A stretch of 64,000 nucleotides of DNA from Gemmatimonadota bacterium. GTDB taxonomy: Bacteria > Gemmatimonadota > Gemmatimonadetes > Palauibacterales > Palauibacteraceae. The position numbers were made by a program, and so were the translations under genes. Below, in pieces: positions 1-3,395 of this stretch (its first letter is position 1; the number at the start of each line of letters is the position of its first letter). The DNA lies in NCBI GenBank assembly GCA_965116475.1, contig OZ220691.1, forward strand, positions 2,877,935 through 2,941,934, in the 5' to 3' direction. The notes below the pieces were generated by a model. That model had not been told where the DNA came from and ran no database searches. It worked only from the letters and a program-made list of their open reading frames with translations.

Positions 1-2292
1 GCTCATGACGCCGGCCTGCAGGTGCACTGCCTCGTGCGGGCGGCGAGCGTGGAGGAGGGGCTCGGGCGGGTGCGCGCGAACATGGAACACGCGGAGATAT
101 GGGACGATGACTTCGCTCCGCGCATCCACGTCAGCCCGGGGGACATCGCCCAGCCGCGGCTCGGCCTGTCGCGCGCCGACTTCGACCATCTCTGCGCGAA
201 CATCGACGCCGTCTACCACCTCGCCGCCACGCTGAGCCTGGCCGCTTCATACGCCGCCATCCGCCGCGTGAACGCGTCCAGTCTTCGCAACGTGCTGGAG
301 CTGTGCCTGCGCACGCGCCACAAGCACCTGTTCTACGCCGGGACGATGGGGATCTTCCCCCAGTACGCCTGCGCCTTCGCGCACGAGTACGAGGGGAGCC
401 GCATCGGTCACCAGGCGCAGCCCGACCTGGCGGACATGAAAAGGGTGTTTCCGCTCGGGCTGCTGGGATACCCCTGGAGCAAGCTCGTCGCCGAGCAGGC
501 GTTGCTGTTCGCGCAGTCGGCCGGTCTCCCGGTGGCCGTGTTTCGCCTGGGGCAGACCAGCATGGCATCGACCGGATACAGTCAGCCGAGCAATGTCAGC
601 CACCGGCTCTACGCGGCGGCCGCGGACATCGGATCGTTTCCATCCGGATTCACCCTGCAGTCCACCAACGACCCGGCCGATACGCTGAGCCGCATCTGCA
701 CCGACATCTCATTGAACCCGGAACGACGGTTCACGCTCTACAACTGCTGCAATCCGACACCTTCCTATCGCACGGTGTCGCTCGAGGAAGTCGGGCTGGA
801 CTTGCCGGAGGTGTCGTACCAGGCCTTCAGGCGCGCCTGCCGGGCGCGCGGCGACGCCTCTCCGATGGCGGGATCCTGGCCGATTCTCGATCACTTCGGA
901 CGCTACTGGCTGCGGGGGGCCGAGGCGGCCACGTCGCTCCCGATCAGCGACCGCGCCATTCGCGAGGACAGTCCCGGGCCGATTGAATGGCCCGGCCCGC
1001 TGACCCGTTACGTGCGTTTCAACCGGTGGGTCCGGGCGCATCCCGAAGACTGGCCCCATCCGGTGCCGCGCCGCGGCCTGGACTTCGACCGGCTGGTGAA
1101 GCAGGCGCGGCGCTATGCCGAAGAAGCCGGGGTCTCTTTCGAGGACACCTACCCCGAGTGGATGCTCGAAGGGATGGAGCAACTCGTGGAAGTGCTCAAC
1201 TCACCCGAGGCGACCCTGCCGGAAGACCGAGTCGGCCACATCGTCTTCGACATGTGCCGGATGCTGCGGAACAACGCGGAACTCGCCAGTGAACGCGTGC
1301 GCCTTCCCGCGATCGAGCGGCAGGAGATCGTCCGACCCGTGTTCATCGTGGGCATCAACCGGACGGGCACCACCTACCTGCACCGCCTCATGGCCCGGGA
1401 CCCCCGGTTCTGGACGCTGCGGGCGTACGAGTACGTCGAGCCCGTCATCGCCGGCGGCGATTACGCCGGCCTGGCCGGCACGCCCGAGGACCCGCGCCGC
1501 CCGTTGGCGGCCGACGTGTTCAAGGCGTCGGGCATCATCGATTCCTTCAAAGGGACTCACCAGATCGGCATCGACGAGCCGGAAGAGGACATGCCGATCC
1601 TCCGGCTCTCGTTCAGAGCCTGGATGTTTGCCACCCGGCATCCCATCCCGACCTACGAGCGCTGGCTCGAAGCGAGCGGCTCGCGTGAATCGTACGCCCT
1701 GCACCGACGCGTCATGCAGCACTACACCTGGCAACGCCGGGAGCGGTATCGCGGGGCCGACGGACAGTGGTTGTTCAAGATGCCGACGCATCTCAGGGAG
1801 CTGGAGGCGCTGACCGAAGCCTATCCTGACGCGTTGTTCATCCAGACGCACCGCGAGCCCGCGCAGTTCATGGGATCGTGGTGCAGCCTGGTCGAGCGGA
1901 TTCGTGCGGACGTCAGCGAGCCGCGTCCGCCGCATGAGCTGGGCGCCGAACAGTTGCGCGCGATGAGCCGCCTCCTCGATCGGGCGGTGGATTTTCGCGA
2001 GTCGCACCCGGAACTGGACGACCGTTGGATCGATGTGAGTTACTACGATCTGGTTGAAGATCCGACGGCCGTCGTGGCGCAGATCTACGATCGTCGCGGC
2101 TGGCCCCTGGAGCCCGAAACCGTCGCGGCCATGGAAGCGTGGCTCGACGAGCAGATGGAGCGCCGTCGCACCGAGAAGCGCCACACGTACGACATCGCGG
2201 ACTACGGGCTGACGCGCGAGGCGATCGACCAGGCGTTCGTCCGCTATCTCGATTTCCTGTCGGACCGCGGCCGCCGGGCTTCGCTGTTGTGA
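1..2292 (+). CDS. Thioester reductase (R, extended SDR) domain fused to a C-terminal PAPS-dependent sulfotransferase; SwfB-like; 5'-truncated by window edge
   Basis: Frame is open from base 1. R-domain motifs: GDIAQPRLGL, VYHLAA, YPWSKLVAE (YxxSK). Sulfotransferase motifs: PVFIVGINRTGTTYLHRL (5'-PSB loop), WLFKMPTH, FIQTHREP..FMGSWCSL (3'-PB). Confidence 0.85.
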   Translation, partial: AHDAGLQVHCLVRAASVEEGLGRVRANMEHAEIWDDDFAPRIHVSPGDIAQPRLGLSRADFDHLCANIDAVYHLAATLSLAASYAAIRRVNASSLRNVLELCLRTRHKHLFYAGTMGIFPQYACAFAHEYEGSRIGHQAQPDLADMKRVFPLGLLGYPWSKLVAEQALLFAQSAGLPVAVFRLGQTSMASTGYSQPSNVSHRLYAAAADIGSFPSGFTLQSTNDPADTLSRICTDISLNPERRFTLYNCCNPTPSYRTVSLEEVGLDLPEVSYQAFRRACRARGDASPMAGSWPILDHFGRYWLRGAEAATSLPISDRAIREDSPGPIEWPGPLTRYVRFNRWVRAHPEDWPHPVPRRGLDFDRLVKQARRYAEEAGVSFEDTYPEWMLEGMEQLVEVLNSPEATLPEDRVGHIVFDMCRMLRNNAELASERVRLPAIERQEIVRPVFIVGINRTGTTYLHRLMARDPRFWTLRAYEYVEPVIAGGDYAGLAGTPEDPRRPLAADVFKASGIIDSFKGTHQIGIDEPEEDMPILRLSFRAWMFATRHPIPTYERWLEASGSRESYALHRRVMQHYTWQRRERYRGADGQWLFKMPTHLRELEALTEAYPDALFIQTHREPAQFMGSWCSLVERIRADVSEPRPPHELGAEQLRAMSRLLDRAVDFRESHPELDDRWIDVSYYDLVEDPTAVVAQIYDRRGWPLEPETVAAMEAWLDEQMERRRTEKRHTYDIADYGLTREAIDQAFVRYLDFLSDRGRRASLL

Positions 2293-3395
2293 CACTCCGC
2301 CAGCCGTGGCCGCCGCGCGGGCCGGTGCTCGTCACGGGCGCGAACGGCTACGTCGCTTCGTGGCTGGTGAAGAGGCTTCTGGAGCTGGGTTTCGACGTCC
2401 ACGGGACCGTGCGCGATCCCCGGGATCCCGCCCGAACCGGCCACCTGCGAACGATCGCCCGGGACCGTCCGGGAACGCTGTCCCTGTTCCGCGCCGACCT
2501 CCTCGATCCCGACGGGTTCAACGAGGCGATGGCGGGGTGCCCATTGGTCTTCCACACCGCGTCCCCGCTCATCGTGCGCGACGTCGACGATCCGGTGCGC
2601 GATCTCATCGAGCCCGCGTCACTCGGCACGCGCCACGTACTGGAGGCCGCTGGCCGGACAGCCGCGGTCCAGCGGGTGGTGCTGACTTCAAGCATCGTGG
2701 CGATCTACGGAGACGCGGCCGACCTGGAGAAGATCGAGCAGGATCGGTTCGATGAGAGCCACTGGAACACCACCAGCCACGAAGGCCACCAGCCGTATTC
2801 CTACTCCAAGACCCGGTCGGAGCGGCTGGCCTGGAAGATGGCGGAGGAACAGACCCGGTGGGATCTGGTGGTCGTGAATCCCGGGCTGGTTCTCGGACCC
2901 GGCCTCAGCCGAAACACGAACGCCGAGGGCGTCCTGATCATGCGCGATCTGGGAAACGGCGCTCACCGCGTCGGCGCGCCCGAACTGGAGTTCGCCATCG
3001 TCGATGTCCGGGATGTCGCGGAGGGCCACCTGCAGGCGGGTCTCCTCCCTGAGGCGGAGGGACGCCACATCCTGGTCAGCGAGACGCGCAGCCTGATCGA
3101 AATCGCCGGGATCCTGCGGGACCGCTTCGGCGACGGCTTCCCCTTCCCCCGCCGCACCGTGTCCAATCCGATGGCCATCGGGTACGCGCCCCTGGGGGGC
3201 ATCCCCCGCGCCGTGGCGAAGCGCAACGTCGGGTATCCCCTGAGGTTCGACAACGCGCGCGCCAGGACGGCGCTCGGCATCGACTTCCGTCCCGTCGAGG
3301 AGACGATTACGAGCCACTTCCAGCAACTGCTGAACGACGGTCTCGTCTCCGCTCCCCGGGGCGGCCGCCAGGACGGAATGCGGGAGTCACGCTAG
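2289..3395 (+). CDS. NAD-dependent epimerase/dehydratase (extended SDR, dihydroflavonol/cinnamoyl-CoA reductase-like)
   Basis: GTG start overlaps upstream TGA (GTGA). VLVTGANGYVA Rossmann motif, VFHTASP, VVLTSS, YSYSKT (YxxSK), VVNPGLVLGP, VDVRDVAEGH. Confidence 0.85.
   Translation: MTLRQPWPPRGPVLVTGANGYVASWLVKRLLELGFDVHGTVRDPRDPARTGHLRTIARDRPGTLSLFRADLLDPDGFNEAMAGCPLVFHTASPLIVRDVDDPVRDLIEPASLGTRHVLEAAGRTAAVQRVVLTSSIVAIYGDAADLEKIEQDRFDESHWNTTSHEGHQPYSYSKTRSERLAWKMAEEQTRWDLVVVNPGLVLGPGLSRNTNAEGVLIMRDLGNGAHRVGAPELEFAIVDVRDVAEGHLQAGLLPEAEGRHILVSETRSLIEIAGILRDRFGDGFPFPRRTVSNPMAIGYAPLGGIPRAVAKRNVGYPLRFDNARARTALGIDFRPVEETITSHFQQLLNDGLVSAPRGGRQDGMRESR

Follow-up and report, generated by a model that had tools for sequence, protein, structure and literature searches.

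Gene content of the swf locus

The swf cluster described here, in which a polyketide synthase (PKS) gene is followed by a gene for a thioester reductase–sulfotransferase (R-ST) fusion, lies at the edge of a stretch of 64,000 nucleotides from a Candidatus Palauibacter-like chromosome (Gemmatimonadota; assembly GCA_965116475.1, contig OZ220691.1), which we call the window (G000:C1:2877935-2941934). The genome is a single contig of 3.62 Mb that is 96% complete. The window opens inside swfB, and the 40 kb 5′ of it were read as well (L002 coordinates). Together they hold a block of seven genes in about 17.5 kb, at 2863.8-2881.3 kb of the genome and all on the plus strand, running from cysD through cysNC, an SLC23/NCS2-type permease gene, swfC, swfA and swfB to a gene for a short-chain dehydrogenase/reductase (SDR). 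The features are as follows (coordinates are those of the window unless prefixed by L002).

L002:8677-10455, plus strand: swfC, B12 radical SAM protein of 592 aa (B12-binding, Radical_SAM and DUF4070 domains; CPFDCEFC at residue 176)
L002:10643-17713, plus strand: swfA, PKS of 2356 aa with the order KS-AT-DH-ER-KR-ACP (all six domains by Pfam)
1..2292, plus strand: swfB, codons 76-838 and stop (TGA at 2290-2292), frame 1 open from the window edge
about 1-1100, plus strand: thioester reductase (R) domain of SwfB (NAD_binding_4, E 3.3e-36, Pfam; TIGR01746, E 1.5e-42)
469..483, plus strand: YPWSK, the reductase catalytic Tyr/Lys motif, aligned with the GYAQSK motif of the MxaA R domain
about 1336-2260, plus strand: sulfotransferase (ST) domain of SwfB (Sulfotransfer_3, E 4.7e-36, Pfam)
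1357..1374, plus strand: NRTGTT, 5′-phosphosulfate-binding loop of the ST domain
2289..3395, plus strand: extended SDR of 368 aa, of the cinnamoyl-CoA reductase/dihydroflavonol reductase (CCR/DFR)/aldehyde reductase group (Pfam Epimerase, E 4.4e-25; TAG stop)
2337-2357, plus strand: GANGYVA, the GxxGxxA NADP(H) motif, at SDR residue 17
2796-2810, plus strand: YSYSK, of the catalytic S...YxxxK, at SDR residue 170
3411..4793, minus strand: aldehyde dehydrogenase (ALDH), succinate-semialdehyde-dehydrogenase-like (Aldedh, E 1.9e-137), convergent with the SDR gene and forming the downstream border of the swf block

The complete swfB gene encodes 838 aa from an ATG at L002:17710, 225 nt 5′ of the window, and 763 of its codons lie inside. 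An earlier sequence-only reading of the window had described an R domain with a YxxSK motif fused to a sulfotransferase dependent on 3′-phosphoadenosine 5′-phosphosulfate (PAPS), and the profile matches bear this out for a gene that is cut by the window edge. The NADPH motif TGATGFIG, in part upstream of the window, is intact, and Y232 and K236 of the R domain as well as N528, R529, G531, T532 and T533 of the ST domain are invariant across 22 homologues. Matches to solved structures span residues 52-360 and 446-828, the nearest being the MxaA reductase 4u7w for the R domain (E 4.6e-38) and 2zq5/2z6v for the ST half. Full-length homologues number more than 120 at 56-90% identity, including proteins from metagenome-assembled genomes (MAGs) of Gemmatimonadota and Gammaproteobacteria; the closest named loci are in Candidatus Palauibacter MAGs (80-87% identical), with Paracoccaceae MAGs farther off (54%). 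Public labels for these proteins are “SDR family oxidoreductase” or “epimerase/dehydratase,” which conceal their sulfotransferase half.

A few relatives of SwfB stand apart. One member of a 90%-identity cluster of homologues is 2019 aa long (P0401) and could be a fusion with a neighboring gene or an artefact of gene calling. When metagenome contigs were scanned with the SwfB alignment, the patterns chosen were generic NAD and PAPS loops and nearly all matches were unrelated reductases or sulfotransferases; the didomain was matched in L051 and in the distant L059 only. The latter (L059:260-3201) encodes an R-ST didomain with 24% identity over residues 15-824, by which measure the fusion may exist outside the swf family proper. 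The window's own genome also encodes a stand-alone sulfotransferase (G000:C1:2487320-2488432; L012:1456-2832, minus strand) that shares 35% identity with the ST half of SwfB, has no NCBIfam match, and is kept throughout the genus, even in G100, a genome in which cysNC was not found.

The sequence-only reading had placed the gene at the tail of a swf-like pathway and had advised a search upstream for a type I PKS or fatty acid synthase (FAS) with a carrier protein, whose absence was to count as a refutation. Such a gene is there: swfA overlaps swfB as ATGA, indicating translational coupling, and the B12 radical SAM gene lies upstream of both. As defined by Della Sala et al. (2013; PMC3908369), swfA is a KS-AT-DH-ER-KR-ACP gene of 2349-2361 aa, swfB an R+ST gene of 832-839 aa, and swfC a B12 radical SAM gene of 585 aa that carries CX3CX2C and is optional, being missing from pPSA11D7; the published loci are fosmids pPS11G3 and pPSA11D7 of Plakortis simplex and POR_0547-0550 of Poribacteria WGA-A3. 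The same paper lists six signature motifs of SwfA, namely DPQ(I/V)R for DPQQR, HATGT for HGTGT, IAFH, GHSSGE, QCALVEL (with variable ends) and FSGQGTQW (PMC3908369), and the upstream PKS has all six, in KS (DPQIR at residue 97, HATGT at 324) and in AT (FSGQGTQW at 545, QCALVEV at 611, GHSSGE at 630, IAFH at 733). Its KS cysteine stands in TACSAS and its ACP serine in GLTSI. Membership was judged by domain order, sizes and motifs, and pPS11G3 was compared directly via its ORF16 and ORF17 proteins. Because the PKS domain order, the six motifs and the gene sizes match the published genes, we regard it as virtually certain that the upstream genes and the 5′ end of the window are a genuine swf cluster. 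The R-ST cluster and the alkyl-sulfate hypothesis are already published, and this copy is a further member of the family, which has been reported from Poribacteria, Nitrospirota, Latescibacterota, Acidobacteriota and ‘Thalassonella’; the paper on the Palauibacterales speaks of clusters with a type I PKS and does not name swf.

The SDR gene begins with a GTG at 2289 that overlaps the swfB stop as TTGTGA, confirming the GTGA coupling noticed in the first reading; translation might instead begin at the in-frame GTG of codon 13, and both starts lie less than 40 nt from the swfB stop. Its G+C content at third codon positions (GC3) is 0.86, like that of real genes nearby, and the protein has a TVRDP motif too. 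Its nearest solved relatives are DFR and CCR (E 5.6e-49 to 7e-46), followed by GRE2, aldehyde reductase II and ketoreductases, and from its sequence it is predicted to be a carbonyl reductase of the NADPH type. It shares 71% identity with the “alcohol dehydrogenase” (ORF16) of pPS11G3, from a bacterial symbiont of Plakortis simplex, and the permease upstream, which scores only as NCS2/SLC23, is 70% identical to the “Permease” (ORF17) of the same fosmid. Both ORFs lie just upstream of swfA there; ORF16 is 2.7 kb away on the opposite strand and was not counted in the operon, and ORF17 was described as SupE-like in the 2013 table (PMC3908369).

Distribution of the block and its accessory genes

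Among 301 sampled Gemmatimonadota genomes, SwfB was found only in the family of the window's genome (genus g1) and in a single further family, f6. The SDR clade (at least 71% identity) occurs in 16 of the 301, and 15 of these also have swfB, the sixteenth (G228) having a decayed cluster. In 13 of the 16 genomes no more than 10 kb separate the SDR gene from swfB, and it flanks the cluster. Some of these have it coupled after swfB (G000, G251, G082, G058), and the others have it in divergent orientation immediately ahead of swfA (G177, G273, G230, G207, G164, G200, G079, G124, G291); it is 23 kb from swfB in G210 and on a separate short contig in G189. In all, the SDR gene is linked to swf in 14 of the 16. 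The GTGA overlap of swfB and the SDR gene is kept in at least six Palauibacter genomes. Like the SDR, the permease recurs beside swf clusters in two Gemmatimonadota families. In the second family, G210 and G228 have the SDR-permease pair and cysD-cysNC lie beside swf in G192, which supports the linkage of these genes with swf independently of Palauibacter. Contig evidence, which is indirect, points the same way: homologues of the SDR and the permease share many contigs, some of only 5.2 kb, and the SwfB, SDR and permease families all occur on one contig of 37.5 kb. Some swf clusters are without the SDR, which makes it inessential to the core pathway, and it is a recurrent accessory, not a core swf gene. 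One swf-positive congener has, on another contig (G199:C115:6019-9954), an SDR of a second clade, 61% identical, and some 1 kb from it a further copy of cysNC, 88% identical.

The sulfate activation genes are joined to the same block. cysD and cysNC, in which cysN and cysC are fused, lie 13 kb upstream on the same strand, and the cysD/cysNC and cysNC/permease overlaps are each TGATG. Within the genus sample of 36 Palauibacter genomes, swfB and the orthologues of the permease and of cysNC (each at least 88% identical) are present in the same 14, with about 13 kb between them, and are absent from the 22 others. The window's genome has one PAPS_reduct-family gene, which is cysD itself, and one cysNC; neither a PAPS or adenosine 5′-phosphosulfate (APS) reductase nor a NIR_SIR sulfite reductase was found in this single contig, 96% complete. 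Since there is no second PAPS_reduct gene and no NIR_SIR in the genome, its PAPS is probably not reduced at all and goes to sulfotransferases, for sulfation only. That the genome appears to activate sulfate without reducing it also suggests that the predicted sulfated lipid is of importance to the cell.

Two swf-less Palauibacter genomes (G240, G241) define the limits of the block. At their locus all genes from cysD/cysN to the SDR are missing, and the flanks are kept: XDH, GGT, TetR, a membrane fusion protein (MFP), an RND pump, a cysC-only piece, ALDH and FeS-NrfD. Because these genomes keep only the flanks, the variable block is cysD-cysN(C)-permease-swfC-swfA-swfB-SDR. At the block site both keep an APS kinase gene (cysC only) of about 190 aa (L138:14948-15511, L139:14844-15389), which suggests that the block either was deleted or came in with a fusion of genes.

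The empty sites also bear on neighbors that could be mistaken for cluster members. RND pump, MFP and TetR genes stand 83-88% identical beside the empty site in G240 and G241 (TetR in two pieces, 71-87%) and are rejected as cluster members for the genus. The ALDH at 3411-4793 was considered as an aldehyde enzyme of the pathway and rejected: its top NCBIfam match is succinate-semialdehyde-dehydrogenase-like and under the curated cut-off, it is convergent, and it is kept at the same place in the two swf-less genomes. Both the RND pump and the ALDH are chromosomal backbone, outside the pathway. Farther into the window, the ORFs picked at 4800-5993 (minus strand) and 7815-10262 (plus strand) have no Pfam match and poor GC3, so that the true genes at 4800-5993 and 7585-10700 are to be sought in other frames.

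Between conserved flanks (permease 88-93%, ALDH 94-97% identical among Palauibacter), the swf cores diverge, with SwfB at 54-90%. Four kinds of SwfB allele can be distinguished: 86-90% identical and accompanied by the SDR, as in the window; 79% and lacking it; 61-67%; and 54-57% with the order PKS-rSAM-RST (rSAM, radical SAM; RST, reductase–sulfotransferase). Tandem pairs of swf clusters occur in L004, G079 and G320 (L004:13896-22496; L042/L043, G079:C1:1457001-1490000; G320:C1:3632161-3647390), with a type I member ordered PKS-RST-rSAM or rSAM-PKS-RST with the SDR and a type II member ordered PKS-rSAM-RST with SwfB 54-55% identical; the two presumably make two different lipids. Two clusters are damaged. 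In L047 (G058:C1:1332001-1351000), at about 10243-15472, swfB is split by an insert of about 3.5 kb (residues about 357 / 354) and the reading frame of swfA is broken at residue 2166, which reflects either decay or an assembly error. In L050 (G228:C4:745001-765000) the swf cluster is decayed, PKS residues 12-748 being joined to a radical-SAM fragment with no swfB, and the SDR-permease pair beside it is intact.

Predicted pathway and competing explanations

Della Sala et al. (2013) proposed that R+ST turns the carboxyl end of the chain into a primary sulfate and that SwfC possibly methylates the chain, and stated the product as unknown (PMC3908369); papers of 2022 and 2023 still called swf function unknown. 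We extend that proposal as follows. SwfA would iteratively build a saturated acyl chain on its own ACP from malonyl units, and SwfC may add a methyl branch or another radical modification. Using NADPH, the R domain of SwfB would free the chain, either as aldehyde or as alcohol, and the CCR/DFR-like SDR would complete or secure the reduction of aldehyde to alcohol. The ST domain would then esterify the primary alcohol with sulfate from PAPS, supplied by the linked cysD-cysNC, and a long-chain alkyl sulfate would result; the permease probably imports sulfate or exports the product. We consider it probable that the block as a whole makes a long-chain alkyl sulfate by these steps, and hold the alkyl-sulfate chemistry itself to be likely, with slightly less assurance. 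The reductive release followed by sulfation that the first reading had put forward thus gains a cluster context and agrees with the chemistry of the 2013 proposal, and continues to be a prediction; the extra redox step that it had assigned to the SDR gains the linkage of the SDR clade to swf clusters, and its reaction likewise is a predicted one. The chances that the SDR acts as an aldehyde reductase seem to us about even. We are similarly divided on the broader proposal that the functional swf unit is larger than swfABC, with a CCR/DFR-like reductase and an SLC23-type permease as recurrent members, and that in Palauibacter it is joined to cysD-cysNC as one block of about 17.5 kb which is apparently the genome's only use of activated sulfate and in which the swf core has been swapped between deeply diverged alleles at a fixed slot.

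Several points weigh against this interpretation. The SDR is missing from G199/L008 (the 79% allele), from G192, from all PKS-rSAM-RST (type II) clusters and from the Paracoccaceae loci. The 14 swf-positive Palauibacter genomes may form one clade, and their co-occurrence would then represent few independent events. The literature searched contains neither a characterized R-ST nor an identified product of any swf cluster, and the chemistry is read from domains; by its sequence the R domain could carry out either a two- or a four-electron reduction. The NCS2/SLC23 family is known for the transport of nucleobases and ascorbate, not of sulfate or lipids. A SulP transporter is encoded elsewhere in the genome, so the permease need not import sulfate, and a role for it as sole sulfate importer is unsupported, given that SulP gene and a score for NCS2/SLC23 alone.

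The explanation that competes best concerns the SDR, which might be a passenger, or work with the permease on an unrelated substrate, with SwfB alone making and sulfating the alcohol. The MxaA reductase, to which the R domain is nearest among solved structures, is a four-electron reductase, and such an enzyme would favor this explanation, as do the swf clusters that do without an SDR. The SDR and permease also share contigs down to 5.2 kb and persist as a pair beside the decayed cluster of G228, possibly as a unit of their own. Against a passenger stand the GTGA overlap, kept in at least six Palauibacter genomes, and the finding that among the 301 genomes this clade appears only where a swf cluster or its remnant is present. 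We therefore think it unlikely, and prefer the SDR as part of the swf pathway.

It is considerably less probable that the sulfate is a leaving group, as in CurM and the olefin synthases (Ols), and that the pathway ends in an alkene, an ether or an alkylated acceptor. The curacin and olefin synthase precedents are discussed by Della Sala et al. (2013), who also point out that alkyl sulfates are not reported as widespread sponge lipids, and that such compounds would be overlooked by routine saponification and methylation (PMC3908369). Against this, the cluster has no thioesterase (TE) or other eliminating enzyme, no CurM-type chain is among the solved-structure matches of the ST half (nearest 2zq5/2z6v), and a primary sulfate would have no β-carboxylate to drive elimination. 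Least credible of all is that SwfB does not act on the SwfA product, its ST domain sulfating another cell component and its R domain being redox-inactive or acting on a CoA ester: the link of SwfA to SwfB is predicted from gene context and the genome has a second, stand-alone sulfotransferase, but swfB is ATGA-coupled to swfA, the two are adjacent in the loci examined (the type II order being PKS-rSAM-RST), and the catalytic Tyr/Lys and NADPH motifs are invariant.

Returning to the alkyl-sulfate pathway, swf is one of the two most widespread PKS/FAS systems of sponge microbiomes, and thirteen years after its description the literature searched contains no product. The seven-gene, one-strand set on a closed chromosome offers a fuller cassette for heterologous expression than swfABC alone; our analysis suggests that expression of three swf genes might fail, either for want of a PAPS supply or by reduction halting at the aldehyde.

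Comparison with known systems

The individual proteins each have a known counterpart. The SDR has the GxxGxxA and S...YxxxK motifs of the CCR/DFR/aldehyde-reductase group and its closest similarity, and differs in being bacterial, in lying within a lipid cluster, and in its proposed substrate, a fatty aldehyde. The R domain shares the Rossmann TGATGFxG and YxxxK motifs with that of the myxalamid synthase MxaA (4u7w), the two aligning over residues 52-327; unlike the latter, it is joined to a sulfotransferase, on a polypeptide that does not include the carrier protein. CurM and the olefin synthases likewise have a PAPS sulfotransferase at the end of a PKS line, whereas here the predicted acceptor is a terminal alcohol formed by reduction, not a β-hydroxyl, and no TE or hydrolase domain for an ST-TE off-loading of the CurM/Ols type was found in SwfA, SwfB or the neighboring genes. 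As in PAPS supply of the NodP/NodQ type, cysD and a fused cysN-cysC are linked to a sulfotransferase pathway; here they are the sole cysDNC copy in the genome, not a second one, and the proposed pathway leads to a lipid, not a glycan.

The closest counterpart is the swf cluster of sponge symbionts itself (PMC3908369), which has the same domain orders and sizes of the three core genes, swfB directly after swfA, and the homologues of both the SDR and the permease in ORF16 and ORF17. The host here is a member of the Gemmatimonadota (Ca. Palauibacter), swfC precedes swfA instead of following it, the SDR gene comes after swfB and is translationally coupled to it, and cysD-cysNC are coupled to the permease gene, whereas the 2013 paper left SDR, permease and PAPS genes outside the operon (PMC3908369). 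What is new here is thus an extended gene set whose SDR and permease are also on the founding fosmid, a joined supply of PAPS, and a presence/absence block with swapped alleles.

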